A stretch of 61,967 bases of DNA, filler included, from Basidiobolus ranarum (lineage: Eukaryota): NCBI GenBank assembly GCA_040143965.1. It is 26 parts of 26 records of this genome, joined end to end, with 100 filler letters (N's around TTAATTAATTAA, not from the genome) between each part and the next. Parts side by side here need not be neighbours in the genome. Positions count along the whole stretch, not along the records: positions 52,546 to 54,827 come from JASJQH010003533.1; 25 more parts are not named here. The stretch is one strand, 5' to 3'. Below the pieces are notes generated by a model. That model made no database searches. It had not been told where the DNA came from and saw only the letters and a program-made list of their open reading frames with translations. Below, piece by piece: positions 14,359 through 61,967 of the stretch. The position numbers and the translations under genes were made by a program. Within the stretch, counting starts at the first letter, position 1. Every line of letters starts with the position of its first letter.

Positions 14359-14884
14359 TATCAGCTACGGTGAATTTTCCAAATAAAAATCCTTCGTCTT
14401 CACAAGAGTTCTTACTTATGGTTTTCAGTCTACATTCCTCCCAAATTTTTATGATTCGATGGATTTCTTTTTGCAAATCCTGATCACCTAATGTCTCAGC
14501 GGAGAGCTGCTTACGTCCTCGCAGATTATAGGGCATTACGTTACGAATTTTAAGAAAGCCAGCGTGCATCTCTGCAGACACCGATCTGGCCAGAGATCTC
14601 TCTTCCCTATTCTTGGGTAATAACTCGGGATAAAGCTCTATAAGGTACTCAAGGATAGAAAGTGACTCCCAAACAATATACGACTTGCCAGAGTCTTCGG
14701 TCACAATTAAAGATGGTGCCTTCACGGTTGGACTGACCTTCTGCATTTTTTGTTTCCAATCTGGGTCATCCATGTAGTTCATATGTATCTCCACTGGTAA
14801 TTGAACAAAGCGAGCGACGAGTAAACACCGAATACTCCAAGAAGAGTAATTCTTGTTAAGCAAACATAACGTATATTTGGTCAT
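14359..14884 (-). CDS. Glutathione S-transferase, bacterial-like subfamily (3' cut by contig edge)
   Basis: NKNYSSWSIR, SPTVKAPSL, WESLSILEYL, ARSVSAEMHAGF and FLFGKFTVAD motifs; intronless. Confidence 0.9.
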
Positions 14885-16268: not shown

Positions 16269-16650
16269 TTAGATATTTTCGTACATTGCTATATAATGAT
16301 CTTCTCCTTCAGCTTCTTGTTCCAACTCCTTGCCAATGGACCAGTTGAAGATGGTCTCCATGTACTTCTTAGCATGTTCATTCTCAACAGAGATATTATA
16401 AGAACGGAAACGGTAGCAAATAGGAATGTACATAGCATCTGCTATAGTAAACTTTCCAAACAAAAATCCTTCGTCATCCCCAGACTTTTTGCTTAGGGTT
16501 TTCAATCTACATTCCTCCCAAACCTTTGAAACTCTGAGTATTTCTTTCTTCAAGCCCTCGTTAGCTAGAGTCTCAGCAGAAAGCTGCTTACGTGCGCGAA
16601 TATTATGGGGCATTGCCTCACGAAGTTTGGGAAAGCCAGCGGGCATCTCA
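16269..16650 (-). CDS. Second GST paralog, C-terminal half (5' cut by contig edge)
   Basis: EMPAGF...FLFGKFTIADAMYIPICYRFRSY, closely paralogous to 14359-14884 and in the same orientation. Confidence 0.88.
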
Positions 16651-16750
16651 NNNNNNNNNNNNNNNNNNNNNNNNNNNNNNNNNNNNNNNNNNNNTTAATT
16701 AATTAANNNNNNNNNNNNNNNNNNNNNNNNNNNNNNNNNNNNNNNNNNNN

Positions 16751-17801
16751 CAGGATAAGCCACATGAAATAATCAAGAACCTTCTGAGTAACACCTGGTT
16801 TTGGTTTTTCCACAATTGGTTCAAATCAAGGTGATTTTGGGCAAGATTCTGCACAGTTTCCAAAATGTTAAACCTCTCATCATCAGAGCAAGCAATGGCA
16901 GCTCTGGGATTCAGAGTCTTTTAGTTTGCTGGTTTTCCTATGAGATTTCTACTTTCATATTCCCAAGCAATTTCTCATTGCTGTGTAGCTTTAATGATCC
17001 AATGCATATTTTGGTCTCCTATATTGTCACAGTGATGTTGACATCTACAGTGTCAGATTGATTGAAATCCTATATGAGGCTACAGCATGTTGCTGTAGTT
17101 TAAGTACAGCATTTGGAGGGTCTGGTATCATAGTTGAGTGACTCTCCAACTGTTGACTAGTTGCTTCCAAACACTGCATTAATGACAATACTGTGGCATT
17201 ATTGCTGGTCATGGCCTCTATAGCAACTTTGTAGTTTTTACTTACAATCACATACAAGGCATTATGGTGTTCTGCCCACAATTCCCTTGTTGTGATAATT
17301 CTATCCAAATTTTCTGTGGTGGGTTTTTCAATAGTGGGCAAAGTAGCCATTTTGGGAGTTGATGGTCTTAACAGTGTTTCTGTTGAAATTTGCTCAGCTA
17401 TTGATTTACTATGTAAATGAGGGATTACCATCTCTTCACTTGCACTCCATGGTAAAAAGGAACACATCTGGTAAATTGATCAATGCTCCATCATTAATTG
17501 AGTTTGTTTCTGGCATGTTAATGTCTTCCAAAGTGGATAGGGGATCACTAGACTCATCATCAATGAAGTCCTCTGTTGTTGCTGGTTTATTTCCTTTTGT
17601 GATGGTTGGCTTTTGCTTCAAAGCCAATTTTGATTTTGATTATGAACACTTTTTGAATGGCATTGAAATTCTTGGATGGTAAACTTGGTGTAGTGAAATT
17701 GCTTAGAAACAGCTTACAATAAACCAAAATTGCTATCCATTACCGGAAATACTTTGTAAATCCCCTGATGATTGATCTGGGACACCATCTCAGAATCAGT
17801 T
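16751..17801 (-). mobile_element. CACTA-family ORF2 copy (decayed)
   Basis: Colinear with 710-1760. Confidence 0.8.
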
Positions 17802-19041
17802 TGTTGAAATTAGCAATGCCTGAACATCTAAATAGTCATATATAACTTAGTACTTAGTTATCTTATAACCCACTAAGATATTATCAATTATTCTCAATTG
17901 GAATTTACTTAGAATATTTTTACCAACTTAAAGGTTCTCAGATATATAGACTTTCAAACTTGTGCTAGAAGCCCCAAACTTTGCACACATGTTCCTGGGA
18001 CCTTCCTTAATATATTCTACATGATAGTTTGTTTACATCTTGACAAAACTATAAATTTCAACTTTCTATGCAATAAATCAATAAGTGAAGACCACCAATT
18101 CCTCTAATTTGCCAAACCACTTCCAACAGGCTCCCAAATACTTTAACAGGTTATGAGCCCCAAGCTTGCACTCTCTGAAATGTCTACTTCTAAAGTTTAT
18201 GGAATTTTTCCTTTCTCTGAAAAATTGGATGGAACCAATTATCAAGTTTGGAGAATTAAAATGAAAATGCTGCTGCAAGAAAAAGGACTTTAGGATACTG
18301 TTGTAGGAGAAGAAAACAATGCAAAACTAGCAGACAACAAAGTTTTACTCCAGGTTACAAAAGAACAAAGTGCCTTTAACACAGTTTGTCTTAATGTTAA
18401 AAACAAATCGCTAATTCAATGTTCAAGAGCTGAAACTGCCAAGAAGGTATGGAAAGCCTTGGAAGACACCTACCAAACAAGCTCTGCTGCCAACAAGATG
18501 TTTTTCAGAAGACAATTCTTTAACTTAAAGATGGAGCCAGGAGAAGACATTAAATCACTAATTGATAGAGTCACTATTTTAGTGGATCAAATGGAATGCA
18601 TTAGAGAACCTACCACTGTTCAAGATATCATAGTTACAGTCCTGGATAGCCTGCTACATGAGTTTCAGAGCCTAGTAATGGCTCTAGAATCAAGAACTAA
18701 AAATTTGACCTTAAGTTATGTATTAGGCAGACTTCTGGATGAAGATTTACACAGATCAAGACTTAACCAAAAGAATGAGGAAAAAACTCTAATAGGCTAT
18801 GGGAAACCTTCTTATAAAGGTCAAAAGCACTTTGAGAAGAAAAGTAACCCATTCTGTGATTACTATAAAAGAACTGGCCATTTAAGCAAAGATTGCTTTA
18901 GAAGAATTGCAAAAGAAGAAAAACATACTGAATCAGGAAATGTGGTTACAACAGAAGATCACTTGTTCATTTCTGCTCTATCTATGACCACCAACAAGGA
19001 TTCTCAGACATGGTATATTGATTCTGGAGCTTCCTAACATT
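17802..19041 (+). mobile_element. Copia family A: 5' LTR (17802-18148), PBS, gag and protease start
   Basis: PBS GGTTATGAGCCCC; gag KLDGTNYQVWRIKM, FFRRQFFNLKMEPGE; zinc knuckle CDYYKRTGHLSKDC; protease WYIDSGAS. Confidence 0.93.
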
Positions 19042-21532: not shown

Positions 21533-21638
21533 CCAAAATGGTAAATAACATCGTGCCGGATAGTGCCCAATCATGCCAATTTGTGCTGGCACACTTTTTA
21601 GCTGGCCTGATCTGGCTCAATAAAATGGAACAAGTCTA
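21533..21638 (-). mobile_element. Terminus of an unclassified repeat (TAGACTTGTTCC end)
   Basis: Same sharp boundary in four copies (21638, 50405, 52236, 60117) with unrelated flanks. Confidence 0.7.
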
Positions 21639-24704: not shown

Positions 24705-25260
24705 GATACATTGGCTGAATTCTTTTCAAAATTTGCCAAAATCCAAGAGCTCATTCTCATTGTGAATGATAACAAGAGTCAGCTCTTTGCCAAGTGTTAG
24801 TGCTATTCAAAATTTCAGATGTTTAGCAATTTTCCACCCTTTGTTTGCCAGTAAAGCATATTGATGTTGTTGAGTTATGTCCAATCAGTCAAGTATGTGC
24901 ATATGTAGAGACTAAGCACAATGAGATTCTTGTATTTTTTAATTCTCATTATGGCTGGAATACAAAGCCTAAAATATCTAACTAAAGGTATGCACATTAA
25001 TTCAAATTCCTGCAGCAGTAAACCCAGTAATTTGCTATTCAAAAATTTTATTTTTGCAAAAATTGCCAGATATTGAATAATGCATGCCAAATTTGGATAT
25101 TGATATTTTAACATGTATGAATACCATCAAGAAACCACCAAGACACCACCAAAATCCATGGCAGAATGCAAGCCACCTATATTGTGACAGTTCTCTGATG
25201 GTTTTGCTATTTTGGAGGGTGGATCTAATCCATGTCAAATCAATTTTATTTTTGTTTGGG
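24705..25260 (+). mobile_element. Second CACTA 3' end (host of the preceding copy), itself inserted in a Copia-B LTR
   Basis: Repeats the sequence of about 24136-24704 and ends TTTTGTTTGGG; LTR-B sequence follows immediately. Confidence 0.8.
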
Positions 25261-26211
25261 ATTAGCTTTCAGTATTTCCACCAAAATGTATAAATGCTTC
25301 ATTTCGGGACAATAAACAATTTTCTCACAAAAGCTGTTCATAACTCCACCTTTCTAAAGTTCCTCCAAACAGCCCATATTTTCCCCATAGGTTAAGAGCT
25401 CCATATTCTGACCTTTACAGCATGACTGGCACCACTACTCCCACCTTTATGAACTCAAGTGTTGAAGAGCTTGATGGAGAAAATAACAATATCTGGAAGT
25501 TCAAGATGCAAATCATGCTAGAAGATAGGGAGCTTTGGGATATAGTCTCTGGAGATTAAAAGGAACCTTCTGACTCTACTTTATTGGAATCTTACAAGAA
25601 AAGAAACAAGAAGGCATTTAATGTCATTTGTCAAAGTTTGAAGGATTCACAACTTGTGAATATTCAAAATGCAAAGACTTCCCATCAAGCTTGGACTATA
25701 CTGTGAGAGTGTTATGAAGCAATAAGTCTTGCTAATAGACTCTTTCTCAGACAGATATTCTTCAATATATTGATGGAAAAGTCAGAAAGGCTGGTTACTC
25801 ATGTTGCAAATGTGAGATCTTTGGCAAAATAACTGGAAATATTGGTGCAACTCTAGAGGAAGAAGATATTTTTAAGAATCTTCTAAGTTGTCTACCAGAA
25901 CAGTACTCAAACTTGGTTGCAGCTTTCGAAGCAACATCTAACAAGTTATCTCTGGAGTATGTGGTGGCAAGATTAATGGACAACACCTCAGAAGTAAGAA
26001 TTTGGAAAAAGAATCTGAGGAAGTGGCTCATTTTTGAGCTGGAAAACGTAGCTTTGGCAAGTACAAAGGTTACAAAAGAAGGAAACCAGGTTTATGCTTT
26101 GGTTGTAACAAGCCAGGACACCAGTTAAGAGATTGCAAAGCAAGAAATTTAAACAAAAATGAGAAGGCAGAACAAGTAATTCAGGTTTCTACGAAGATGG
26201 ATGTGTTATTC
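25261..26211 (+). mobile_element. Copia family B: partial 5' LTR, PBS (25390-25402) and decayed gag
   Basis: PBS GGTTAAGAGCTCC; gag LDGENNNIWKFKMQIMLEDRELWD, ANRLFLRQ; knuckle CFGCNKPGH. Confidence 0.9.
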
Positions 26212-28700: not shown

Positions 28701-30988
28701 CTAAAACTTTGAGGCAAAGCACAACCAGTGTACTCAGTGGGCAAAACTAAAGTCAATTTTGTGCACTTATTACTGTTGATATTTACCAGGCATTGTGCAT
28801 CTGAAGACTTTGTATAGTGACAATACTTGTGATTATTTTCTCTATGAAGCCTCTGGCTTTCATATCTCAAGAATTTGTGACAATAATAGCAGGGCTTCTT
28901 TAAATGTTGGTGTTGTGTGATAAGAAGGGATTTGTAGAAAAACCAACACCTCCTATGTAAGGTGGTATTTCAGGTAGAGCCCATCAATATCATTAGCTGA
29001 TTCTGAGATGGTGTCACAGATGAGTCATCAGGGGAGTTACAAGTTATTTCTGGTAATGAATGACAGTTTTGGTATATTATAAGCTGTTTCTAAGCAATTT
29101 CATTACACCAAATTTACCATCTGAATATTTCAATGCCATTCAAAAGGCATTCAAAATCTAAATCAAAATTGGCTTCCTAGCAAAAGCTGGCTGGCACAAT
29201 AGGAAAAAAACCAGCATGAGTAGAGAACTTAATTGATGGGCAGTCTAGTGCTCTACTATCCACTTTGGCAGGCATTTACATGCTGTAAACTAACTTGAGT
29301 AATGATGAAGCATTAATCAATTTACCAGATGTGTTCCTTTCCAGCAATAGTTCAAGTGGAGAGGTTGTAATCCCCCATTTATATAGTAAATCAATAGTTG
29401 ATCAAAGCTCAACAGAAACAATGTCAAGACCATCGCCTTTCAAAATAGCTACTTTGCCAGCTATTGACCAACCCTCCATACCAAACTTGGAGAGAGCTAT
29501 TACAACAAGGTAACTGCAGGCAGAACACTATAATGATTTGTATGCAATCATTATTAAAGCTACAAATTTGCTGTACAGGCCATAACAAGCAATAATGCCA
29601 CAATATTGCAATTGATGCAGTGTTTGGAAGCAACTAGTAATCAGTTAGAGAGTCACTCAACAACAATACATGACCTTGAGAATGCTATACTAGAGCTACA
29701 GCAACATGCTGCACCCTCCATCCATCCGCATACAGGATTTCAATTAACCCTATACCTTACATATGAATGTCACCATGAAAATATAGCAGTGCAGAATATG
29801 TGTTGGACCATTAAGCCTACATAACAACCCAAAATTGCTTGGGCACATGAAAGTAGAAATCTCATAGAAAAACCAGCAAACCTAAAGACTCTGAATGTCA
29901 GAACTGCAGTCACTTGCTCTGATGTTGCATGGCTTAACATTTTCAAATCTGTGTAGAATCTAGGCCAAAATGGACTTGATTTGAGCCAATTGTGGAAAAA
30001 GCAAAAGCCTGTTGAAATTAGGCAAATAGCAACTCATTATTTAGTAGTTAGTTTATTCATATTTTGATTATTTAGCACTCAATTTTGTCATTCAAAAATG
30101 TGTGTATATTGCTCTGATTAATAAAAAATTAATTAGATCACTTGTACTAATTTTCACTATCTTCTCAAAACTTCTACAAATCACCACATATTTTCACCCA
30201 TGCTTAACAGGCATGTTTGTCATGATCTAAGCATATCAATATTCCTATTTCATAGTAAGCTATAAATAGGACATATTTGATTCAACAAAACTTAGGTGTC
30301 TAATTCACAAATCCAAATCTTGTCCAAAACACTTCCTGATAAGCTAAACACTTGAATCAAAACAAGGTGTTACTTTGAAGATTTTTGAAATATTTCACAT
30401 GGCTTATCCTGGGTTTTTGTAAGCAAATGACAATTGGGCTGGTATAGTCCTATTCATCAAACATCTCATAAATGTATGCAATTATTAACTTGGAACAGAA
30501 AGAATAGCAGCTAAAGAAGCACTTGAGAAGCAGGATTTTTGTAAACCCAAGGGAAAAGCAAAGGAGGCAGTGAGTTTAGGTTCCACTGTCTCATTTACCA
30601 AATTATTCACACCACTACAAAGATCTGCATTGCCAGAGTCAGATGTATTGGCACAAAAGCTGAATTTCACCATGGAACCCAGTACACCAGTGGGAAGATT
30701 GCTAAATCTGAAGTTTATCCAATATCTGGCACCTCTCAACAAGCCAAAACACCAGCAAATAAAACTCACTGCTCTTAAACATCAACTGGTAGTTTTCAAA
30801 GTGTTGAAATTAGCCCCTAACTTAAAGGCAAGCAAAAAGCTATGTACCTACCACACAGCACCCTCAGTAGTGTCACACTGCATGGATGTGTAAAAATAGT
30901 CAAAGTGTTTGAGGAGTATTCTCAAAAGTGTGAAGGGAAAAATGCAGTGCAAGTATGCAACAAGTGGCTTCAAAAGAAGCCCCGTCAC
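28701..30988 (+). mobile_element. CACTA-family internal segment (ORF1 start on minus strand, ORF2 on plus)
   Basis: Colinear with 48075-49960; contains solo LTR-C. Confidence 0.82.
30010..30359 (+). mobile_element. Solo LTR, Copia family C (350 bp)
   Basis: TGTTGAAATTAGG...TGAATCA with degenerate TSD AAGCC/AAACA (the empty site reads AAACC in other copies). Same LTR at 45988-46337 and 54575. Confidence 0.88.
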
Positions 30989-33374: not shown

Positions 33375-33474
33375 NNNNNNNNNNNNNNNNNNNNNNNNNN
33401 NNNNNNNNNNNNNNNNNNTTAATTAATTAANNNNNNNNNNNNNNNNNNNNNNNNNNNNNNNNNNNNNNNNNNNN

Positions 33475-33649
33475 AAGGATTCACAACTTGTGAATATTCA
33501 ATATGCAAAGACTTCCCATCAAGCTTGGACTATATTAGAAGAATGTTATGAAGCAAAGAGTCTTGCTAATAGACTCTTTCTCAGACAAAAATTCTTCATT
33601 GTAAGGATGGAAAAGTCTGAAAGCATGATTACTCATATTGCAAATGTGA
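33475..33649 (+). mobile_element. Copia-B gag fragment fused in frame to hexosaminidase
   Basis: DSQLVNIQYAKTSHQAWTILEECYEAKSLANRLFLRQKFF...THIANV matches the gag at about 25641-25817. Confidence 0.9.
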
Positions 33650-34149
33650 TTGTTCAGCAATGGACCGGGAGTCAAAATACGAAATCCATTGTTAATCTTG
33701 GGCATGACATCATCCAAAGCGGGTCTGATTACTGGTATTTGGATGTAGGACATGGTCGTCATGCTCCAGGATGGGTTAATTGCCCTACTTGCGATAAATA
33801 TCGTACTTGGCAAAAAATATACTCTCATGACTTACGTGCGAATCTTACGGAAGCTGAGGGTGCTCATGTGTTAGGAGGCGAGCCTGCCCTGTGGACAGAA
33901 CAAATCGACTCTTACAATCTTGATGTACAGATGTGGCCTCGTGCAGCAGCAGCAGCAGAGGTTTTGTGGAGTGGTTATAGTGCTATTAATTATACAGACA
34001 TCTTTGGCTCTGTCAAACGTGCTTTCCCTAGACTTAACGAATGGCGCTATCGTATGGGTGGACGAGGAATCAAGGGTGCTGCTATAGCACCTCTCTGGTG
34101 CGTTAAACAAATGGGATGGTGTGATCTTCCAGCTGGTTTTGAAGCATAG
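33643..34149 (+). CDS. C-terminal part of GH20 beta-N-acetylhexosaminidase
   Basis: YWYLDVGHG, YRTWQKIYSHD, VLGGEPALWTEQID, MWPRAAAAAEVLWSG and RLNEWRYRM...PLWC motifs. The catalytic DE is absent from this fragment. Confidence 0.92.
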   Translation, partial: NVIVQQWTGSQNTKSIVNLGHDIIQSGSDYWYLDVGHGRHAPGWVNCPTCDKYRTWQKIYSHDLRANLTEAEGAHVLGGEPALWTEQIDSYNLDVQMWPRAAAAAEVLWSGYSAINYTDIFGSVKRAFPRLNEWRYRMGGRGIKGAAIAPLWCVKQMGWCDLPAGFEA

Positions 34150-34366: not shown

Positions 34367-35758
34367 TTAAATGCTAGGTATAGAACAACCCTGAGGTTCA
34401 CTATTTGTAACCACGGACGATTCATCATTAGATCGCTTGAAGGTGTGTTCATTACTACCACGAGCTTTGGAAACACTCGATGCATCGTGAGAGTATGTAG
34501 CTAAAGCATGGGCAATGCCACGCGCATTGATCAAAAATGGATAATGTGCGAGGTTTGCAGCAGTATCGCATGCCTTGTGGTAGCATTGGTCCAGGGCTTC
34601 ACCTGCTTTTCCACCGAATTTCTTGGCCTGCTCTTCGGTTTTGATCTCTTCGGCTCCGGTATCCAGCCCGCCAGAAGGAATTCCTACTGCCGCAAAAGGC
34701 CCTACATCTGAACGGCTGTAAGGGAAAACACTACTCTGATAAACAATATCCTTGGCCTTGAAATGATCCTCAAAGAGTTTGGTAATGACTTCGGAGCCAG
34801 CTGGTACTGGCTTACCACTAGAATCGCCGTTGTATGTCCGGATGATATAGTTGGGTGAAGCAACCATATCAAAATTTAGAATGACTGCTATGTTATCTAT
34901 TTCACTCTTTTCTAAGCTCTGTACATAGTGTTTCGAGCCTAACAAACCGAACTCCTCCCCAGCCCACCAACCGAATCGGACCTTATTCTTAGGTCTAATA
35001 TGACGGAATTGGTATGCAATTTCGAGAAGTGCACTACTGCCAGAACCATTGTCGTTGATCCCTGGACCAGCTCTAACCGAGTCCGTATGAGATCCAAGTA
35101 ATATAACATTCTTTGGGTCCCCACCTTTCGTTTCGGCAATGATGTTGTAAGTTTTACGGTTTTCGCGTAGCTCGTTGATATTTATCGAGGCCTTCACCTC
35201 CCCACTCTTCAGTAAGTCAATAAATATTCTGCCTGATTCTTGGCTCACACCTCCTGTAGGAATGGTCGACGTACCTTCAACTCCCAAAGTTCCACTAAGA
35301 TTTCCTGGAGTATTATTGTAAATTATAGTGGCTACTGCCCCAAGTTTACTCGCTTTCACTGATTTATCGTTAAATGCACAACCACCACGCTCGATTAAAG
35401 CAATCTTTCCTTTGAGGTCAAGTCCTGAGAAGTCACCATCCTCACAGCCTGCTGTTCCCTTCTCCCCAGCCACATCTGGAACTAGGACGAGTGGTGCAGT
35501 GAGACCACTATCAGGGGTTGACGCAGTCAGCGTCATCGCCCGAATCACGTAATCCTTACCATTAACGCTTAATTTTTGTGCTAATGTTTCAGAGTAAGGG
35601 GCAGTGAACTCTTGAAGAGTGACCTTGTACCCGGCATTTTTGACAATTCCATAGATGTAATCGAGTGTAAGTTGATGGCCTTTCCCACCAAATACTCTAG
35701 TATCATTGTTTTGACTGGCAAACTTTTGGAGGTTATCAGTATGTCGGAGAAGTCCTTT
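34367..35758 (-). CDS. PA-domain M28 aminopeptidase (aminopeptidase Y/SGAP-like), 5' cut by contig edge
   Basis: Open, intronless frame reaching the contig edge. PA domain (KIALIERGGCAF) and all metal-ligand motifs present: GSHTDSV, GINDNGSGS, GEEFGLLGS, NFDM, CYHKACD. Confidence 0.95.
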   Translation of the reverse strand, partial: KGLLRHTDNLQKFASQNNDTRVFGGKGHQLTLDYIYGIVKNAGYKVTLQEFTAPYSETLAQKLSVNGKDYVIRAMTLTASTPDSGLTAPLVLVPDVAGEKGTAGCEDGDFSGLDLKGKIALIERGGCAFNDKSVKASKLGAVATIIYNNTPGNLSGTLGVEGTSTIPTGGVSQESGRIFIDLLKSGEVKASININELRENRKTYNIIAETKGGDPKNVILLGSHTDSVRAGPGINDNGSGSSALLEIAYQFRHIRPKNKVRFGWWAGEEFGLLGSKHYVQSLEKSEIDNIAVILNFDMVASPNYIIRTYNGDSSGKPVPAGSEVITKLFEDHFKAKDIVYQSSVFPYSRSDVGPFAAVGIPSGGLDTGAEEIKTEEQAKKFGGKAGEALDQCYHKACDTAANLAHYPFLINARGIAHALATYSHDASSVSKARGSNEHTFKRSNDESSVVTNSEPQGCSIPSI

Positions 35759-35860
35759 AANNNNNNNNNNNNNNNNNNNNNNNNNNNNNNNNNNNNNNNN
35801 NNNNTTAATTAATTAANNNNNNNNNNNNNNNNNNNNNNNNNNNNNNNNNNNNNNNNNNNN

Positions 35861-36234
35861 TACTGTAATACTTGTGGCGAAGAGTCTTGTACATTTGTGG
35901 AGCTCAAGGGTACTGTATCGTTGTTTCGTGATGGTTTCGCGATGACTTCCCATTGTAAATCTACTAGATCATAACCAATGTTTGAAATGGATTTTTCGAT
36001 GGTCTTACCCAACTGAACACGGTCATCGATTGCAAAATCGGCTACTCCACGGCCGGTAAGGGAGCTGACACTAATAGAATCTGTGACGATGGAGTCGATG
36101 GCAGCCAAGGCCTTCTCAGTGGTTTTAACACAAGACGAGCAGGTCATGCCTTCTATTTGCATGATAGCTCTATACAGAAAGTTCTGTTCAGGCTGTGAAA
36201 CCAACACACCCTGCAAGTCGGTATTTGCTGACAT
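35861..36234 (-). CDS. N-terminal HMA domain of a probable P1B copper-transporting ATPase
   Basis: IEGMTCSSCVKT...ISNIGYD HMA motif; TATAAA about 125 bp upstream. Runs off the contig. Confidence 0.75.
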
Positions 36235-36496
36235 TGTTGTATGTATGTGATGTATGTGATGCAAGTAATGTTAAGGAATAATTAGATTAAGTTGGTGTAG
36301 AGTCGATCTACTATAATATTGAAATGAGTTACCAAATATCGTGGCGACACTGGGTGCTTTATATCATTTGATGCCGTTTCAAAAAACCTAATTTGGATTG
36401 GTCTATTCAATTCTAGAACAGATCGGTTGGGTATTTCTTCTTCACATTCTACAACTTCTATGGCTTCTGTCCAATCAAGGCGGCTTCCACAGGAGA

Positions 36497-41539: not shown

Positions 41540-42845
41540 GATTCTCACACAAGTTGTTAAGTTATGGTAGAAGTTAAACAACTTTGTATGTTGGTGCACA
41601 ACAGTGTCATAAAGGTTATCTCATGTGTTACAGTGCCCAATGATAGCAGCCTTCCATCAATTACTTCCAAAAGGACTGGACTAGATTTCTTGATTATTGG
41701 GATAGAGTGGGAATTCACAAAGGCAGAGTCAATAAAACAGGCAAAAGCATCTTAAACAAGAAGCACAGTTGTTTTTATTGACTTGGAATTGGGTAGGAGG
41801 AGTGTAATGGGCAGCTTTAATGATTGATATTACTGCAGAGATTGCAATATATGGTGAAGAAACATTTTTGAAGAAGTTTGGCCCAACTGCATGATCATTA
41901 TTGTAGCTAGGCATTGATGTTTTTTAATAGTTGGGGAGAGTTCTCTTCTACTTGCATATTGTTGATCTTAGATTCAGGATTCTTGTATGGAGAGTTTCTG
42001 GCTACATGTCCAGGAGCTCCACAACAGAGGCATACATTCTCTTGATGGTGTCAATATTTCTCCTCTGGGCTAAGCTTTCTGAATCAAGTTCAATCAATTT
42101 GGATTGGGTTATCTGCTTGAGCTGTATTTTGTGTTTGATGGGAGGGAGATCTGAAAGTAGTTGAGGAAGGAGAATAGAAAGTAGCAATGTTTCTTTATTG
42201 TTGTCTTTCAAACAACCAGTTGTCACACTGAATTGCCTGATGGATGGTGTCAGTCAAGCTCACTGGGTCAGCTATAGTAAGTTCAAGATCTTGGTTATTT
42301 TTGCAAAGTTCATATTGAAACTGGTTGATCACGGCAGATTCTCCCCCATTAAGATCACAGGCAAGGAGGCAAAATTCTGCAGCATAAGTTAATGTGGGCT
42401 TTGACCCTTGCTCAAGTGTACAGAGCTTGGTAGCTGAAGCTCTTTTCATGTCTGCATTTTCAAATGTAGCTTCCAGCTTAGCAAGGAAGGCAAGGAAATT
42501 TGAAAAAAGTGGAGATTGACTTTGCATCAAAGGAGGAAATCAAGATAGAGCTGTCCCTGATAATAGTATTCCCACTAGGCCTACTTTTGTTTGGTCAGAG
42601 GGTAGCAGTGGAGAGTTAGCTGGACAATGAGTTTTACTTTATTAATAAAACCACAATAGTTTTGGTGACCACTATCAAACTTATTTAGTAAGGAGATCTT
42701 TGGTTCAGGAGTTGGATTTGCAGGATAGTTAGGTGGAGCTGGATTCTGTACTTGAGCAAGTGAAGCACAAAGTTCTTGATTTTCTTGCTGACGCTGAGCA
42801 AGGGCGCACATGATATTATCCATTGTGAGGGCGGGTGGAGACATA
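41540..42845 (-). mobile_element. Ty3/Gypsy gag + protease (Retrotrans_gag/DUF4939-type), decayed
   Basis: EPKISLLNKFDS..CGFINKVKL, LEQGSKPTLTYAAEFCLLA, AIQCDNWLFER; protease region LIDSAFVNSHSIP...EVIDGRLLS. Confidence 0.88.
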
Positions 42846-47781: not shown

Positions 47782-50063
47782 GATTGGATCAAACTCTCCT
47801 CTCCTCAATAATCAAAGCTTCTTCCTTTACTTTAAGTTTTACAAGTGGGCAAATGTTTGCCAATAACAAAGAGTCTGTAACAAAACCTTTTTCTTTTTCT
47901 TCAACTTCTGATATATTACCATCAGTACTGGATTAACCAAGGTCAACATCTAGCTGTATGTCCTCAAAGTTATCTGGACTTACTGGTTTGACCAGATTTG
48001 AATTTCTATCTATATCATTCTGCTCATATAATTGTAGTAACTCCACAGTATCTTGTCTTTTGGTGGTGTTATAAAAACTTTGAGGCAAAGTACAGTCAGC
48101 AGACTAAATGGGCAAAACCAAAGTCAATTTTGCGCACATATTACTGTTGATATTCACCAGGCTTTGTGCAACTGCTGGCTTTGTACAGTGACTGTGCTTG
48201 TGATTATTTTTTCTATGAAGCCTCTGGCTTTCATAGCATGAGAATTTGTGACAATAATAGCAGGGCTTCTTTAAACATTTGTGCTGTGGCATGAGAAGGA
48301 TATTGTGGAGAAAAATACACCATCTATGTAGGGTGGTATTTCAGGTATAGCCCATCAATATCATCAGCTGATTCTGAGACAGTGTCACTGATGAGTCATC
48401 AGGGGATTCACAAGATATTTCCAGTAATGGATGGCAATTTTGGTTTACTACAAGCTGTTTATAAGTAACTTCAATGCCAATCAAAAAGCATTTAAAATTT
48501 AAGTCAAAATTGGCTTTCAAGCCAAAGCCTGCTAGCACAAAAGGAAAAAAACCAGCATGAACAGAGGATTTAATTAATGAGAAGTCTGACAATCCACTAT
48601 TCACTTTGGAAGGCATTAACATGCCAGAAACTAACACAAGTAATGATGAAGCAATAATCAATTTACAAGATGTGTTTGTTTCCAGCATTAGTGCAAGTAA
48701 AGAGATTGTAATCTCTCAATTACGTAGTAAAGCAATAGTTGAGCAAAGTACAACCAAAACATTGTCAAGACCATCAACTTCCAAAATGGCTACTTTGCCC
48801 ACAATTGAACAACCCTTGGCACAAAATTTGGATAGAATGACTACAACAAGGGAATTGCAGGCAGAGCACCATAATGATATGTATGCAATCATAAGTAAAA
48901 ACTATGAAGTTGTTATACAGGCCATGACAATTAATACTGCCACAATATTGCAATTAATGCAGTGTTTGGAAGCAACTAGTCAACAATTAGAGAATCACTC
49001 AACAATGCTACAAGACTTTCACAATGCTGTACTTGAGCTACAGCAACATTTCTGCTGCCTCCATCCTTTCTCACACAGGATTTCAATCAATCACACAGCA
49101 TACATATGAACATCACTGTCACAATATAGCAGAGCAGAATATTAGTCACAACATTAAGCCAACACAAAGACCTGAAATTGCCTGGGCATATGAAAGTAGA
49201 AATCTCATAAAAAACCGGCAAACCAAAAGACTCTAAACATCAGAGCTGCTGTCACTTACTCTGATGATGAGTGGTTTCACATTTTGGAAACTGTATGGAA
49301 TCTGGCCCAAAAATCACCTGGATTTGAGCCAATTGTGGAAAAACCAAAAACCAGGTGTTACTCTGAAGGTTCTTCACTTATTTAATGTTGCTTATCCTGG
49401 GTTTTTGCAGGCAAATGGTAATTGGCTAGTATAGGCCTATTCCTGAGACATCTCAAAAATATATGCAATTAGTGACTTGGAAAAGAAAGAAATGTTGCTC
49501 AAGAAGTACTCAAGGAGCAGGAAGTTAGTCAACCAAAGGGAAAAGCAAAGGAGCCAGTGAGTTTAGGCTCTACCATCCTACTTACCAAATTCTTCCACCA
49601 TTAAAAAGATCTGCATTTCCAGAGTCAAATATACTGGCAAAAAATCTTAATTTCACCATGGATTCAGGTACACCAGTTGGAAGAGTACTAAATTTGGAAG
49701 TTTATCCAACACCTGGCACCTGTCAACAAGCCAAAACACCAGCAAATAAAACTCATGGCACTCAAACCTCCACTGGTACTTTCCAAAGTGTTGAAATTAG
49801 CCCCAAAGTTAAAGGCAAGCAAAAAGCTGCACAAACACCACAAAGCACCCTCAGTAGTGTCACACTGCAAGGATGCATGAAAGTAGTAAAAGTACTTGAG
49901 TATTATTTTCAAAAGTATGAAGGAAAAATACAGTGGAAGTATGCAGAAAGTGGCTTCAGAAGAAGAACATTCAACTTGACATTCAGCCTGGTGTTGACTG
50001 TGCAGATATCTGGGAAGAACTTAATACAGAGTAGCACATTATTGCAGGGTATCTGCCAGATAG
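47782..50063 (+). mobile_element. Longest uninterrupted CACTA-family segment: ORF1 start (minus) and near-complete ORF2 (plus)
   Basis: ORF1 ATG at 48292 on the minus strand, ORF2 from about 48474 on the plus strand, separated by about 180 bp. The 3' end links to the terminus at 9025-9474. Confidence 0.85.
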
Positions 50064-50163: not shown

Positions 50164-50405
50164 CATCCATACTCAAAGATATCCTTTGAGATTTCTAGAC
50201 TTAAGACACTATGAATAAAGCTTTCATTATCTTTTGAATGTGCAATAATGTCTAAAAGTACTTTTCTTAAACATGCCACATAAGTAAAATAAACTGTTTC
50301 TAAAATGGTAAATAACATTGTGCCGGATAGTGCCCAATCATGCCAATTTGTGCTGGCACACTTTTTAGCTGGCCTGATCTGGCTCAATAAAATGGAACAA
50401 GTCTA
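50164..50405 (-). mobile_element. TAGACTTG-ended unclassified element terminus
   Basis: Matches 21533-21638 and 52236-52445. Confidence 0.7.
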
Positions 50406-50408
50406 TTA

Positions 50409-51760
50409 ACAGCTGATGTTGTGATGGTGTCGCAGATGAGTCATCAGGGGATTTTCATGATATTTTGGCAATAAATGGCAATTCTGGTGTTTTATAAGTG
50501 GTTTCTAAGCAATTTCATTTTACCAAGTTACCATCAGAGAATTCCAATGCCATTCAAAAGGTGTTCAAAATGTAAGTCAAAATTGGCTTCCAAGCCAAAG
50601 CCTGCTGGCATGAAAGGAAAAAAACCAGCAAGAACAGAGGACGTAACTGATGAGCACTCTAGCAATCCATTATCCACTTTGGAATGCATTAACAGACCAG
50701 AAACTAACTCAAGTAATGATGAAGCAGTAATCAATTTACTAGATGCATTCCTTTTCAGCAATAGTGCTACTGAAGAGATTGTAATCCCCCAATTACAAAG
50801 TCAATCAACAGTTGCACAGAGTTCAACCAAAACAATGTCAAGACCATCAACTTCCAAAATGGGTAAATTGCCCACTATTGATCAACTCTCTGCAGAAATT
50901 TTGGATAGAATTATTGCAACAAGAGAAATGCAGTCAGAACACCATAATGATTTGTTTTCAATCATAAGTAAAAACTATGAACTTGCTATTAAGGCTGTTT
51001 CAAGTTATAATGTCACAATATTGCAATTGATGCAGCATTTAGAAGGAATTAGTCAACAGCTAGAGAGTCACTCAACAATGATACAAAACCTTCAGAATGC
51101 TGTATGTGAGCTACAGCAACATGCTGCTCCCTCCATCCATTCTCATATGTGATTTCAATCAAACCCACATCACACATATTAATATCACCATGCCAATCTA
51201 GCTGAGCAGAATATGTATTGGACCATTAACCTACACAATGACCTGAAATTACTTGGGCACATGAAACTAGAAATCTCATAGGAAAACTGGCAAACCAAAT
51301 GACTCCAAATGTCACAGCTGCCATCACTTGCTCTGATGATCAGTGGTTTAACATTTTGGAAACTGTGTAGAATTTTACCTAAAATCACCTGGATTTGAGC
51401 CAATGTGGAAAAACCAAAAACAAGGCATTACTCGGAAGGTTCTTGACTTATTTCATGTTGCTTATCCTGGGTTTTTGCAAGCAAATGGCAATTGTGCTTG
51501 TATAGGCCTATTCATGAAATATCTCAAAACTATGCACAATTATCAACTTGGAAAAGAAATAAAAGCAGCTAAAGAAGTACTCAAGGAGCAGGAAGTTAGT
51601 AAACACAGGGGAAAAGCAAACAAGCCAGTGAGTTTAGGATCTACCATCCCACTTACCAAATTCTTCACACCATTATGAAGATCTGCATTTCCAGAGTCAG
51701 ATATACTGGCAAAAAAACTTAATTTCACCCTGGAACCGGGTGCACCAGTTGGAAGAGTGC
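50409..51760 (+). mobile_element. CACTA ORF2 copy
   Basis: ORFs 50475-51152 and 51403-51678 are colinear with the other copies. Confidence 0.82.
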
Positions 51761-52235: not shown

Positions 52236-52445
52236 TAGACTTGTTCCATTTTATTGAGCCAGATCAGGCCAACTAAAAAGTGTGCCAGCACAAATTGGCA
52301 TGATTGGGCACTATCTGGCACAATGATATTAGCCGCTTTGGAAACAGTTTATTTTACTTTTGTGGTATATTTAAGAAAAGTACTTTTAGACATTATTGCA
52401 CATTCAAAAGATGATGGAAGCTTTATTCATAGTGTCTTAAGTCTA
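52236..52445 (+). mobile_element. TAGACTTG-ended unclassified element terminus
   Basis: Starts TAGACTTGTTCCATTTTATTGAGCCAGATCAGGCC. Confidence 0.7.
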
Positions 52446-52787
52446 NNNNNNNNNNNNNNNNNNNNNNNNNNNNNNNNNNNNNNNNNNNNTTAATTAATTA
52501 ANNNNNNNNNNNNNNNNNNNNNNNNNNNNNNNNNNNNNNNNNNNNGAGATATATTTGCAAAAAGGCTTAATCCTACCATGCAACCAAGTACACCAGTTAG
52601 AACAGTACTAAATTTTGAAGTTTATGTGATACCTGCAGAAAGTGTCTTTGGAAGAACTTTCAATGTGACAATCAGTCTGGGGTATTGGGAAAAAATGGGC
52701 TGTTTAAAGGAACTTTAGAAAAGTAGAGTTGTGAATAGCTTTGTGAGATATTTATTTATTGTACAGAAATAAAGAATTAATACATTT

Positions 52788-53069
52788 TGTTGAAAGTCTG
52801 GTGACTTGTGGTACAAGCAGTTATTCCCAAAGAGGAAAATATGGAGTATGGTGACTTCATCTGAACACAAAGTCTGAGGCCAATCAGCTGCTTGTAAAGC
52901 TGAAATGCTAAAGTGCCATACATTGACAGACTAGGCTAAGGTTACCTAGCAATATAGGCATAGCATACAAGGACAGGTAGCTCAGTGGTTAGAGCACCTT
53001 GCTACAGTGAAAGATGTCCCAGGATCAAATCTAGGCCAGACCAATATTTCTCCCTAAATAGTTTCAACA
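52788..53069 (+). mobile_element. 282-bp solo LTR containing a tRNA-derived sequence, nested in the Copia-B LTR
   Basis: Perfect 8-bp inverted ends TGTTGAAA/TTTCAACA and perfect 5-bp TSD CATTT (52783-52787 and 53070-53074). The empty site is visible in other LTR-B copies. Confidence 0.88.
52971..53043 (+). tRNA. tRNA-like pseudogene (73 nt) within the LTR; anticodon ACA, possibly decayed ACG (Arg)
   Basis: Canonical spacing: GGACAGG-TA-GCTC AGTGGTTA GAGC-A-CCTTG CTACAGT GAAAG-ATGTC-CCAGG ATCAAAT CTAGG-CCAGACC-A. Perfect D stem and A box; decayed B box. Confidence 0.75.
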
Positions 53070-54574
53070 CATTTTGGCAGAAATACAGAACACTAACACT
53101 GAGGTTGTGTTCAGAACATCTGTGGGAGTAAAGTGAGCTATCTTTTGGGGCAATTAGGACAAGTTTGAAATTTTCAACATGGAATTGCTCATTCTCACAT
53201 TATTCACATTTATATATAATATATGTTCCAATTTTCAGCTTAGTGATATTTGACCAAGTAATGTTATCTAACTTATATGTGATATGTGAAATAGTTAGGT
53301 GTATAAAGATAGAGCTAACAAATATGATAAAGACAATAAACTTTGACACTCCCACTCAATTAAATATTCATATATCTTAATCCTGAACTTAAATCTTAAT
53401 TCTTCAAATTTTGACTTGGGTAATTGTTTGGTAAGGATGTCAGCAATCATGTGCTCAGTTGTACAGTACTCCAGTTGGATATGCTTATTCTCAATAGCTT
53501 CCCTAATAAAGTGATGTTGAATGTCAATGTGCTTACTTCTAGCCTGAAATTTGGGATTTTTAGCCAAAGAAATACAACTTTGATTATCCTTGAAAATTAT
53601 GGTGGGTGAACTATGAGCTATGCCCAAGTCTTTAAACAGTTTCATTAACCAAATACCCTCCTTTGTTGTATGTAATGCTGCCATGTACTCTGTTGCAGTT
53701 GTTGAAAGTGCTATGGTGGGTTATTTCTTGCTATTCCAAGATATAGCTGCTTCACTGTAGAGAAAGGTATATCCAGTTATAGTCCTTAATGTCACATCCC
53801 CTTCTGCATCACCAAAGCCAATTAGATCCTTTTTGTATATGAATATGTGTATCTAATCTCAGATCAATTGTCCTCTTTAAATATCTGAAACTCTGCTTAA
53901 CTGATGCATAATGCTTAGGTCCTGGATTTTGCACATGTTGGATGACTACTCCCACTGCCAAAGAGATATCTGGCCAGGTTCCAATTGTAGGATAGATCAG
54001 ACTACCTACCATGGACTGATAAGGGAACTCAGGGCTTTCAAATGACATCTTTTGAGCCATAGTTGGGCAATTTTCATCATTTTTGGTAGGATTTTTGACT
54101 AGTTACACACCTGGATTCATGAGAGCTGCTACTGGCTTGCAATTCTCCCTCCTGTAATATCTGATAATTTCTGAGATATATTGAGATTGATTGAGAGTAA
54201 TTGAATTGCTCAATATATCTGTATGGATCTGCAGGCCTAAGAAATACCTAGGATCACCTAAATTGATCATCTTGAATTGTACTGATAGATCTCTTTTGGT
54301 GTTCCTGAGATCTTCATCATTATTGGTAGCTATAATCAGACCATTTATATATAAGGCAAGTATCACCTTACTGTGCTTATCCTTCATAAAGTAGATCCCA
54401 AAATCTGCTGTTCTCTTTTTCAAATCAAGTGAGTCCAAGTATTTGTCTATCTTAGTGTACCAGGCCCTGGGTGATTGTACAAGTCCATAAAGTGATTTTT
54501 GTAACTTACACACATCCTCAGGGTACTCCGGATCCACAAAACCATGTGATTGATCCATGAAAATATCCTCTTCC

Positions 54575-54827
54575 TGTTGAAATTAGGTAAATTGCAACTC
54601 ATTATTTAGTAGTTAGTTTATTCATATTCTGATTATTTAGCACTCAATTCTGTCATTCAAAAATGTGTGTTTAATGCTGTATTTGCTGGAAATATCAATT
54701 AGATCATTTTTACTAATTTTCACTATTTTCTCAAAACTTCTCCAAATCATCTCAAATATTCACCCATGCTTAGCAGGCATGTTTATTATGATTTAAGCAC
54801 ATCCTATAGTCCTATTTCATAGTAAAC
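54575..54827 (+). mobile_element. Copia-C LTR inserted in Copia-B RT
   Basis: Matches 30010-30260. Confidence 0.88.
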
Positions 54828-56723: not shown

Positions 56724-57208
56724 TATTGGGAAAATATGGGCTGTTTGGAGGAACTTTAGAAAAGCGGAGTTGCAAATAGCTTTGTGTGATAATTGTTTAT
56801 TGTCCAGAAATAAAGCATTTATACTTTTTGATGGAAATACAGATAACTAACACTGGGGTTGTGTTCAGAACATCTGTAGGAGTAAAATGAGCTATCTTTG
56901 GGGCAATTTGGATGAGTTTGAAATTTTCAATATGGAATTGCTAATTCTCACATTATTCACATATGTATATAATATATGTTCCCATTTTCAGCTAAGTGAT
57001 AATTGAATAAGTAATGTTAATTAACTTATATGTGATATATGAAATAGTTAGGTGTATAAAGATAGAGATAACAATTATGATAAAGACAATATACTTCAAC
57101 ACTCCCACTCAACTAAATATTCATATATCTTAATCCTGACTTAAATCTTAATTCTTCAAATTTAGGCTTGGGTAATGGTTTGGTAAGGATGTCAGCAATC
57201 ATGTCCTC
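56724..57208 (-). mobile_element. Copia-B RNase H end, PPT and complete 3' LTR (57101-56724)
   Basis: MIADILTKPLPKPKF; 378-bp LTR, the same length as 154-531. Confidence 0.9.
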
Positions 57209-57308: not shown

Positions 57309-58635
57309 TCTGAAAATTTCAATGCCATTCAAAAAGTATTCAAAGTCTAAATCAAAATTGGCTTCCAAACCAGCGCCTGCTTGCACAGAAAGAGAAAAAC
57401 CAGCAAGAGCAGGGGACTTAATTGATGAGCAGTCTAGCAATCCCCTATCTACATTGGAAGGCATTAACATGCTGGAAACTAACTCAAGTCATATTGAAGC
57501 ATTAATCACTTTACCAGATCTGTTCCTTCCAAGGAATAGTGCAAGTGAAGAGATTGAAATACCCCAATTACATAGTAAATCAATTGTTAGGCAAGGTTCA
57601 AATAAAACACCATCAAGACCATCAACTTCCAAAAGGCTACTTTGCCCACTATTGAACAACCCTCCATAGAAAATTTGGATAGATTTATTGCAACAAGGGA
57701 ATTGCTTGCAGGACACCATAAAGATATGTAAGCAATCATAAGTAAAAACTATGAAGTTCCTATAGAGGCCATAACAAGCAATAACACTGCAATATTGCAT
57801 TTAATGCAGTGTCCAGAAGCAACTAGTCAACAGTTAGAGAGTCACTCAACAATAATACAAGACCTTCAGAATGCTGTACTTGAGCTTCAGCAACATGCTG
57901 CTCCCTCCATCCATTCTCATACGGCATTTCAATTGATCCGACACCATACATATGAATGTCACCATGACAATCTAGCAGAGCGGAATATGTGTTGGACCAT
58001 TAAGCCTACACAACAACCCAAAATGCTTGAGCACATGAAAGTAGAAATCACATAGGAAAACCAGCAAGCCAAAAGACTCTGAATGTCAAATCTGCCATCA
58101 CTTGCTCTGATGATGAGTGGTATACCATTTTGGAAACTGTGTGGAATCTTGCCCAAATTCACCTGGATTTGAGGCAATGGTGGAAAAGCCAATAACCAGG
58201 CATTACTATGAAGGTTCTTGACTTATTTCACATGGCTTATCCTGGGTTTTTGCAAGCAAAAGGCAATTGGGCCAGTATAGGCCTACTCATGAAACATCTC
58301 AAAAATGTACACAATTATTGACTTTGAAAATAAAGAAAAACAGCTAAAGAAGTACCAAAGGAGCAGAAAGTTAGTACAAATTAGCATTCAAGTGACGATT
58401 GTGTCAAATTTGAGTTATGTTTTTCACACATGTGTTGAACTGTAGTTCTCTGAGATTGTAGCCAATCATGCCCAACTATTTTGTGAGATCTTGAAATTTC
58501 CCTCCTGAAACTGAAGAAACTGATTGAAATCAAATCTAACTTGACAATTTTATGATGGTGACTAAACAGTCAATCCCAAATGGATTAAAATTGTGATGGT
58601 ATCCTTATAATAACAATCCCAAAATTCTGTTAGAG
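57309..58635 (+). mobile_element. Internally deleted CACTA ORF2 joined to its own terminus
   Basis: ORF2 runs to about 58375, then subterminal sequence ending TTCTGTTAGAG (decayed TIR). Confidence 0.78.
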
Positions 58636-59688: not shown

Positions 59689-59966
59689 CATTTTGGTGGA
59701 AATACAGAAAACTAACACTGGGGTTGTGTTCAGAACATCTGTGGGAGTAAAATGAGCTATCTTTGGGGCAATTTGGACGAGTTTGAAATTTTCAATATGG
59801 AATTGCTAATTCTCACATTATTCACATATATATATAATATATGTTCTGATTTTCAGCTAAGTGATATTTGACTAAGTAATGTTAACTAACTTATATGTGA
59901 TACATGAAATAGTTAGGTGTATAAAGATAGAGATAACAAATATGATAAAGACAATAAACTTCAACA
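59689..59966 (-). mobile_element. Copia-B LTR, 5' part
   Basis: Ends CTTCAACA on the plus strand; matches about 56825-57101. Confidence 0.88.
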
Positions 59967-60117
59967 AAATTACCTTTCTTAAATATACCACATAAGTAAA
60001 ATAAACTCTTTCAAAAATGGAAAACAACATAGTGCTAGATAGTGCCCAATCATGCCAATTTGTGCTGGCACACTTTTTCGCTGGCCTGATCTGGCTTAAT
60101 AAAATGAAACAAATCTA
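59967..60117 (-). mobile_element. TAGACTTG-ended element terminus inserted in Gypsy pol
   Basis: Fourth copy of this terminus. Confidence 0.7.
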
Positions 60118-61967
60118 ATCATATCTCCAAATAGTTTAACATCCTGAGGGCTGAGGTTGCCATTGCCATTCATGACAGTAGCTAGTCTTTGTAGAGTTAG
60201 TCTGATGCTAGTGTTATTGTCTAGTGGCTCCCTTTCCGGATTGGATGGTCTGGTTTCATCAGTAAGTGGTTCAAGGGAAGGTTTTACTTTAGTAGCAACT
60301 GTCTTGTACTTAGTCCTTACAATGGCTTCTTGTACTTTTGGTCCTAAAGCAGCTCCCCAAGCTAAGTTTGAGTTGGATGTATAATATATTTGGTAGTGAG
60401 TATCTTCTTTGATGCTGCCTCTGCATTCAGTTTGAGTTCTATGGTCAGTGGCTGGTGCTCCATAAAAGTTTGCAAGTAGTCCTGGGTTGCTTCCATAAAT
60501 GGTGTACCAAACAGATCCATAAGGGTAATTCATGACCATTTCTCTTGCTTTTGTCTCCCAAGGTCTTCCAAGTAGTAGGTTGAAGTTTGCTTTTTAGCAT
60601 ATGAAGACAGGTACAGTGTGCCCTAATCCTTGTATGTTGATGGGAAACACATGAATGACTGCTAAAAGTGAAGTGACTCTAGTGTTGGCATCATGCATAT
60701 TCCAGTGTATGTTAGTATCCATTGGGAGCAAGTGTTTGCATAGTAATGACTTATAGAAGTCATTTGGCATCACACCAAGCACTGACCCACTATTAATATG
60801 GCTATGTAGAAGGTCTCCATGAGTTAACCCACTAACTATGGCTGTGGACGCTGAGTAGTATGTGAATCTAGGTGTTTCCTTATTCATCTTGGGAAGTGGT
60901 TCATTATGAGTTGTCTGTATAATTCTTGCAGAAGGTTGATCTATAGGTTGTCTCCTAGTGCTTATGATGTCATCTAGATTTTTCTGACTGTAGGTGAAAC
61001 ACTAACAAGATCCCCAATTGTGATGGAGAGGCAAGAGTCTAAGATCCTCTCAGTAAGTGTCTCAGGATCTGCCTGCTGGCTTGGATTGCATATGATAGTT
61101 AGGCTGTTCAGGTCCTTCTTCAGTAGTTCTTGGTGGTGGTTTTGGAATGTTATCCATAACAACCTCTGGCTTAGAAGATCTTGCCTTCAGTATACCAGTA
61201 GGTCTTAGTTCCTCAGGTAGAGAAGTTGTCCTGGCAGCATAAACTGCAGCTAGGCATGAAAAATCATCTTCATTAGCAGACTCCAATGTTTGATTTTGGT
61301 GCTAGTCAACAGCAAAGTGTGGTGTGTTGCGGTCAGGGTCTTCTACAGTTATTCTTCTAGTGTTGTTAACTGTTGGTGGTAAGTTGCTTTCATACCTCCT
61401 CATCCAAAGTTTAGCCTGACATTTCTGCCATTATGATCAAGTGTAAACCCTCTTGAGTCCAACTGGAGCTCTCCTTTGTCAAGTAGTTCATTCAATTCAG
61501 GACAGTCCTTCTTGGAATGTTTGGTTGAGTCACACCATACACAATTAGATGAGTAGGAAGATTGATAGGTTCCTCCTTGGAAGGACTTGCTCAAAGAAGG
61601 GAGTTCCTGGGGATATGCATAATGGTAGTATTGGGGTTGACATGTTGAATGAGTAGTAGTATGAGTAGTAGTCTTTCTTGTTGTAAGTCCTCAGAGAGAT
61701 TCAATAGGATCCCCAACATTTGGTGCCAAATGTAGTTGTTTTATGTTGAAAGCAGCAACTATAACTGCAATATCCTAAGAATTTTGTGAGGTGTTCAAAG
61801 GGTGTGCTAACCACAGTTGAATAACTCTGGGATGTACTGTAATATGGGTGTGTCTTTTGCTGCTTGGGTCTTTGTGAAAGGGAATCAAGTCTCTAGAAAT
61901 GTCTAAGGACTGATAAACCACAATGAAATGTCCAGCTTTCTGTTGAATAATATGCTGGCACCTGACA
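60118..61967 (-). mobile_element. Ty3/Gypsy element: 5' LTR-F (61967-61731), PBS, deleted gag with CCHC knuckle, protease and pre-RT linker
   Basis: PBS TGGCACCAAATGTTGGGG; CVWCDSTKHSKKDC; ITIGDLVSVSP; HINSGSV (DSG decayed); LLLGRPW; TKYKTVATKVKP. Confidence 0.88.

Follow-up and report, generated by a model that had tools for sequence, protein, structure and literature searches.

A 61,967-nt stretch of DNA from the fungus Basidiobolus ranarum (assembly GCA_040143965.1; hereafter the window) contains a 282-bp insert with inverted ends, a CATTT target-site duplication and a decayed tRNA-like module close to its 3' end. We favour, with moderate confidence, the interpretation that it is the solo long terminal repeat (LTR) of an element of the Helenus or 'TRIMp3' class, for which the 3' LTR of a Copia retrotransposon of greater age was the insertion site. 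Helenus elements are miniature LTR elements (TRIMs) that carry a tRNA-like sequence in their LTRs (Kojima 2024, PMC10886601). 'Copia-A' and 'Copia-B' are labels given in this analysis to the resident Copia families, the second of which is the host of the insert. The features of the insert and its host are listed below, the orientation of the element being taken from the sense of its tRNA-like module.

52788-53069, plus strand: solo LTR, probably Helenus-type (tRNA-like-bearing), 282 bp.
52783-52787, no strand: left copy of the target-site duplication, CATTT (empty-site paralogues have a single target).
53070-53074, no strand: right copy of the target-site duplication, CATTT (empty-site paralogues have a single target).
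52788-52795, plus strand: terminal inverted repeat at the 5' end, TGTTGAAA, presumably recognised by the integrase, equal to the first 8 nt of the Copia-A LTR.
52971-53043, plus strand: decayed tRNA-like module, 73 nt, with ACA at the anticodon position (Rfam RF00005; found by ARAGORN at -ps80 only).
52978-52988, plus strand: box A of a type-2 RNA polymerase III (Pol III) promoter, TAGCTCAGTGG, intact, fitting the Helenus pattern TRGCY...YGG.
53022-53032, plus strand: box B, GGATCAAATCT, with two changes, reading GGATC (Helenus: GGTTC).
53044-53069, plus strand: U5-like tail of 26 nt, ending TTTCAACA, with T3 runs at 53047-53049 and 53062-53064.
52683-52787, minus strand: distal portion of the 3' LTR of the decayed host element, Copia-B (matches 56724-56836, 85.8%, and 529-419, 86.5%).
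53070-53348, minus strand: proximal portion of the same Copia-B 3' LTR (matches 56823-57208, 90.7%; 59689-59961, 93.1%; 432-159, 87.3%).
53349-54582, minus strand: broken pol remnants of the host Copia-B (open reading frame (ORF) pieces 53295-53720 and 54103-54582).

The first 8 nt of the insert, TGTTGAAA, form a perfect inverted pair with its last 8 nt, TTTCAACA (53062-53069). The target is intact and single in three paralogous copies of the host sequence within the window, at ~56780-56870 (plus strand), 385-475 (minus strand) and 25220-25335 (minus strand), and a junction alignment against these uninterrupted paralogues leaves 287 extra bases, which correspond to the element and the second CATTT. 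Since all three paralogues are unbroken and hold the target only once, the insertion is real and was accompanied by a 5-bp target-site duplication. The duplication may formally be read as anything from 5 to 8 bp ([A]CATTT[TG], with ACATTTTG as the longest form) because the adjoining bases match by coincidence; we set its length at 5 bp because the TG...CA ends are taken as the termini of the element. The initial annotation had described a 282-bp LTR-type insert with perfect inverted ends and a CATTT duplication. Each of these features lies where it was placed, and to the evidence of the TG...CA ends and the 5-bp duplication the empty-site paralogues now add further strength. Pairs of 44-nt N blocks occur in the window every ~2.39 kb (for example 52446-52489 and 52502-52545; 50 blocks, 2200 N in total) and are not biological; the closest stops 242 bp to the left of the element without touching it.

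The two flanks of the element are halves of one Copia LTR of ~377-379 bp, with aligned extents of 52683-52795 on the left and, for the 90.7% match, 53069-53456 on the right. Better-preserved LTR copies of this host family run TGTTGAAG...CCCAACA. On the minus strand, the proximal part of the interrupted LTR starts TGTCAAAG, where other copies have TGTTGAAG, and the purine-rich sequence GAGTGGGAG stands just before it. The host LTR lies directly downstream of the broken Copia pol pieces on the minus strand, and the element is inserted in the opposite orientation. One pol piece (54106-54582) matches Pfam RVT_2 with an E-value of 2.2e-33, while the other (53298-53720) has no Pfam match. We also considered whether the 282 bp might be the adjacent pol remnant's own 3' LTR. 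This was rejected, as the host LTR is a different sequence of ~379 bp and extends to either side of the 282 bp.

Within the element, ~183 nt of unique sequence are followed by the 73-nt tRNA-like module in sense orientation and then by the 26-nt tail. The module matches the Rfam tRNA model RF00005 with 29.5 bits against a gathering score of 29, and all 71 of the 71 model positions are covered (52971-53043, plus strand). The E-value of this match is 0.043 in a comparison of the whole window with 4227 families; for the surrounding 451 bp alone it is 0.00031. The module is the sole tRNA match in the 62-kb window, even at E-values up to 10. All four arms stand at tRNA spacing, with 44 nt from the start of box A to the start of box B. 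Box A is unchanged, and box B is intact at 9 of its 11 positions, the two changes being T54->A and C62->T (numbered by our own count along the 73 nt). The NC line of the cmscan output marks 8 mispaired positions in the module, read here as five mismatched pairs (acceptor stem, 2; anticodon stem, 2; T stem, 1). ARAGORN returned no gene at its default setting or with -ps, and called tRNA-Cys(aca) at exactly 52971-53043 at -ps80 only. The lack of ARAGORN genes under the first two settings, the five mismatched stem pairs and a free fold that is not a cloverleaf rule out a functional tRNA gene; the present copy is a decayed relic, as its stem mismatches and its two-change box B attest.

These results agree with much of the initial annotation, which had reported a 73-nt sequence with tRNA arm spacing ending 26 nt before the LTR end, an intact A box and a decayed B box; the positions are confirmed, and the Infernal search that it proposed for 52971-53043 passes the Rfam threshold, if narrowly. 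Its further suggestion, that the ACA at the anticodon position derives from the ACG of a tRNA-Arg, finds no support: the relaxed ARAGORN call is Cys(ACA), and by eye the module is nearest to the Thr-AGT- or AGA-like modules of fungal Helenus.

Between 52788 and 53046, T never occurs three or more times in succession on the sense strand, whereas there are nine runs of three or more A. Freedom from such T runs fits a Pol III template and gives weak support to that role; 1022 of 20000 shuffles, and 32 of the 5279 segments compared from the window, are likewise free of them.

The arrangement of the element is that of the fungal Helenus LTR consensus sequences, which likewise start with tgttg, continue with unique sequence, a tRNA-like module in sense orientation close to the 3' end and a T-rich stretch, and finish with a short tail that ends in aca. 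The initial annotation had named Helenus as a group with tRNA-like LTRs, correctly so, and the module stands where it does in published Helenus LTRs (PMC10886601). The conserved boxes of the class are TRGCY...YGG (A) and GGTTC (B), and its complete TRIMs consist of two LTRs and a short non-coding interior with a primer-binding site (PBS) plus a polypurine tract (PPT), 311-1263 bp overall; solo LTRs are common (PMC10886601). The duplications of fungal and plant Helenus are 5 bp long, those of animal Helenus 4 bp. Fungal members are apparently mobilised by Copia, with Copia partners that share the duplication length, and the PBS of most of them complements the anticodon-loop region of initiator tRNA-Met (PMC10886601). 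The element has in common with the fungal members its 5-bp duplication, and a resident Copia, a candidate partner, carries a PBS of the GGTTATGAGCCC type found in most of them.

Fungal Helenus, which include families of the Pucciniales, are the closest known system, and within them the nearest published case, judged by eye, is Helenus-1_AmAr of Amylostereum areolatum, which has an LTR of 209 bp, an interior of 85 bp and a target-site duplication of 5. Its LTR starts tgttgaaa, as does the element, and ends ttttcaaca. By hand count, 56 of 73 positions are identical between its tRNA-like part and that of the element, with one indel and both acceptor-stem halves included; the acceptor halves and the D arm are common to the two modules. 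In the Helenus supplement, 'tgttgaaa' occurs at 10 places, all 10 of them LTR starts, and 'tttcaaca' at 3 places, at LTR ends. The 12-mer of the Copia-A PBS (ggttatgagccc) occurs there at 48 places, and 17 of the 17 among the places listed are at the start of the internal part. The element differs from published Helenus in being represented here by a solo LTR only, with no internal part, PBS or PPT in the window, and in its host: it is found in Basidiobolus, whereas the fungal hosts in Table 1 of the Helenus paper are Basidiomycota only (PMC10886601). The element is probably a new member of the known class of tRNA-bearing LTRs, in a new host lineage and phylum and outside the published families.

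Searches of the Helenus supplement for 'basidiobol', 'zoopagomycota' and 'mucoromycota' gave 0 matches. Among the matches listed, no literature joins Helenus and Basidiobolus, and none on Basidiobolus LTR retrotransposons concerns tRNA-bearing LTRs by title or abstract. The only work since 2023 found on TRIMs with a tRNA-like LTR and a Pol III promoter was Kojima 2024 (PMC10886601).

The resident Copia families have ends that match those of the element. The Copia-A LTR is 347 bp long (17802-18148) and runs TGTTGAAATTAGC...CTTTAACA; it opens with TGTTGAAA, the 8 nt with which the element also begins. The PBS GGTTATGAGCCC follows directly after the LTR at 18149-18160, and a gag ORF lies at 18294-19034 (Retrotran_gag_2, E 1.4e-28). 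The LTRs of Copia-A and Copia-B alike start TGTTGAA..., and the PBSs of the two families are GGTTATGAGCCC and GGTTAAGAGCTC, respectively. At the other end, the last 30 nt of the element show a modest similarity to the end of the Copia-A LTR that was matched or beaten in 13 of 2000 shuffles, a likeness that is only suggestive. Copia-A has also left a solo LTR at 2909-3228 (minus orientation) with TATAG on each side, which resembles the element in its TGTTGAAA-type ends, its solo state and its 5-bp duplication (TATAG versus CATTT). The same history of integration and LTR-LTR recombination therefore occurs in the window. The Copia-A and Copia-B LTRs differ from the element in having no tRNA-like segment, with no tRNA match even at E-values up to 10, and only the ends are in common.

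Another copy of the Copia-A LTR (3285-3599) adjoins the solo LTR at 2909-3228 in the opposite orientation, and the PBS-like sequence GGTCATAAGCCC follows it.

Several observations weigh against assigning the element to Helenus. The tRNA score is marginal (29.5 versus 29) and ARAGORN rejects the module at its default setting. Box B reads GGATC rather than the GGTTC conserved in Helenus, in a single and possibly decayed copy, and the T3-free stretch is only borderline unusual, being matched in ~5% of shuffles. BLASTN of the window (word size 7, E-values up to 10) gave the self-match as the only significant one and thus no second copy of the 282-bp element in 61,967 nt. Nor was a two-LTR form, a PBS or a PPT of the element, the features that define a TRIM, seen in the window, where the solo LTR stands alone. 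The similarity score of the 3' end is tied by 1 unrelated site among the window's 392 AACA-ending 30-mers, and beyond the ends no sequence common to the element and the resident Copia LTRs was found by BLASTN in the window. Finally, the likeness to published Helenus was judged by eye and by motif counts, not by scored alignment, and the strings tgttgaaagtc, gtttcaaca and ggatcaaatc each occur 0 times in the 200-odd published Helenus consensus sequences.

Copies were also sought beyond the window. An exact 22-mer from the anticodon-arm region of the element has 0 matches in metagenome, genome and viral contig collections; a control 22-mer from a repeat with four copies in the window likewise has 0 in the metagenome contig collection, from which the repeats of this organism are evidently missing, so the absence of matches is uninformative on copy number. 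A 52-aa ORF inside the element, searched against a protein collection for copies called as ORFs, gave no candidate.

The alternative that survives best, though we think it rather unlikely, is that the insert is the solo LTR of an autonomous, coding Ty1/Copia family, the tRNA stretch being either a feature of that family or a fragment of a tRNA or short interspersed element (SINE) private to this copy; no Pol III-driven miniature element would then be involved. Such an origin would accord with the presence of tRNA-like parts in 'not a few' Repbase LTRs, the name Helenus being limited to elements with TRIM structure (PMC10886601). The size of the insert, 282 bp, is near those of the resident Copia LTRs (347 and ~377 bp), and the window shows the element in solo form only. 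The LTRs of both resident Copia families, however, are without a tRNA match at E-values up to 10, and the position of the module and the layout of the tail are specifically those of Helenus LTRs. A private SINE insertion would be expected to bring a duplication or an A-rich tail, and neither borders the 73-nt module.

It is very unlikely that the tRNA likeness is a chance resemblance within an ordinary LTR. Its score clears the threshold by 0.5 bit, with a whole-window E-value of 0.043 and the ARAGORN default rejection, but a perfect 11-mer A box stands at canonical spacing from a B box that retains 9 of 11 positions, four arms are at tRNA spacing over 71 of 71 model positions, and the acceptor halves and D arm recur in a published Helenus module. 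Similarly improbable is a non-autonomous cut-and-paste DNA transposon (a miniature inverted-repeat transposable element) whose terminal inverted repeats would measure 8 bp and whose duplication would be 5 to 8 bp. The perfect 8-bp inverted ends and a duplication formally extending to 8 bp (ACATTTTG) would suit such an element, but an inverted repeat of no more than 8 bp is short, its TGTTG...CAACA form is that of the window's Copia LTRs, and the tRNA-bearing layout is that of a known LTR class. Duplications of 5 bp are, moreover, unusual for the common DNA-transposon superfamilies. In SINEs the tRNA head comes first, at the 5' end; they are tailed, and non-LTR elements mobilise them. The least probable origin of all is a tRNA-derived SINE (SINE2), a non-autonomous element that owes its Pol III promoter to a tRNA and its mobility to a non-LTR retrotransposon. 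The A and B boxes and the tRNA-like unit that holds them are present, but 183 nt precede this unit in the element and 26 nt follow it, there is no tail of A-rich or simple-repeat sequence, and it is the element, not SINE2, that has LTR-type TG...CA ends and a fixed 5-bp duplication.

Miniature elements with Pol III promoters in their LTRs are known outside Helenus. Cassandra of plants and Ajax of nemerteans likewise hold a small-RNA gene fragment in each LTR as an internal Pol III promoter, although theirs is a 5S rRNA-derived type-1 promoter (box A, intermediate element (IE), box C), in contrast to the tRNA-derived type-2 promoter of the element, and the hosts differ; of these two, only Cassandra is reported to have transcript evidence (PMC10886601).

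For the insert read as a Helenus-class solo LTR, we propose the following history and mechanism. An LTR retroelement would have integrated with a 5-bp duplication into the older Copia 3' LTR, and its two LTRs would then have recombined to leave the solo LTR. The A and B boxes of the module are predicted to recruit Pol III. In intact members, by analogy with Helenus and Cassandra, Pol III would start at the tRNA-like +1 in the 5' LTR and read across a short interior into the 3' LTR, and resident Ty1/Copia proteins may reverse-transcribe the element RNA and integrate it in trans. The element would come from a multi-copy family with TRIM structure, transcribed by Pol III and dependent on Copia. 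The tRNA-like part would be a promoter, and neither a tRNA nor a primer. The initial annotation had raised the possibility that the element supplies its own primer, which is not borne out: the element holds no complement to the PBS of the resident Copia, even when 4 mismatches are allowed, and no Helenus is reported to have complementarity between its tRNA-like part and its PBS (PMC10886601). In the present copy, the first T4 run after the module lies at 53072-53075, just beyond the LTR end, and any residual transcript would therefore be ~100 nt at most.

Helenus is proposed to have originated by insertion of a SINE2 into the LTR of a TRIM, and an age of roughly 130 million years (My) has been proposed for it in the Pucciniales lineage (PMC10886601). 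It is possible, and we suggest it only tentatively, that Helenus-type elements with Pol III-promoter LTRs occur in the early-diverging Basidiobolus (Zoopagomycota), in which case fungal Helenus would either be far older than ~130 My, predating the split of Dikarya and zoopagomycetes, or have moved horizontally between phyla together with a Copia partner. The traits that would point this way are those in common with basidiomycete Helenus at the sequence level, namely the LTR ends, the acceptor and D arms of the module and the PBS type of the partner. Confirmation of the element as a family would extend the range of TRIMp3/Helenus from Basidiomycota to a zoopagomycete fungus, and would bear on whether SINE or tRNA sequences have been captured repeatedly or Helenus is ancient or horizontally moved. 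Helenus LTRs inflate tRNA-gene predictions in rust fungi (PMC10886601), and Basidiobolus annotations may therefore also hold LTR-borne pseudo-tRNAs.

The window holds further repeats and genes. The four-copy repeat that supplied the control 22-mer (21559-21599, 50326-50366, 52275-52315 and 60038-60078) has an identical core of ~40 nt, and one copy lies ~470 bp to the left of the element. By eye, the ORFs at 42195-42539 and 60096-61001 (minus strand) look like gag- or protease-type retroelement remnants; 60099-60593 has no Pfam match.

For an M28 peptidase ORF at 34370-35758 (minus strand), the top matches that carry a name come from Basidiobolus ranarum and B. meristosporus (80-81% identity); a further named genus follows at 57%. 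The protein stands at 73-83% to those Basidiobolus-type proteins (P0002-P0007) and is thus as near to them as they are among themselves (67-85%). Outside fungi, the best matches are to M28 peptidases of Streptomyces, with 46-50% identity. This M28/PA-domain aminopeptidase ORF lies directly downstream of an ORF with a heavy-metal-associated (HMA) domain, with an N stretch between them (34367-36270, minus strand). A GST ORF at 14360-14887 (minus strand) is likewise matched best, among named sequences, by Basidiobolus, at 67-73%. An origin of the window in a rust fungus, suggested by the Helenus literature, was rejected on account of these Basidiobolus-like genes. Neighbouring GST-like ORFs at 14303-14887 and 16269-16694 (minus strand), with ~77% DNA identity, look like tandem paralogues.

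A repeat of ~1.0-1.8 kb is present in at least 6 copies of 79-86% identity (538-2294, 16751-17799, 28703-30009, 47835-49568, 50404-51638 and 57309-58376). The ORF that it contains reaches 315 aa (907-1854, minus strand) and is without a match in Pfam; the repeat could represent a mobile element or a gene family that is not yet characterised. Finally, a Copia gag fragment (Retrotran_gag_2, E 8.6e-12) and the C-terminal portion of a GH20 hexosaminidase domain (E 1.8e-23) share a single open frame at 33427-34149 (plus strand), which looks like a Copia insertion into or beside a GH20 gene.

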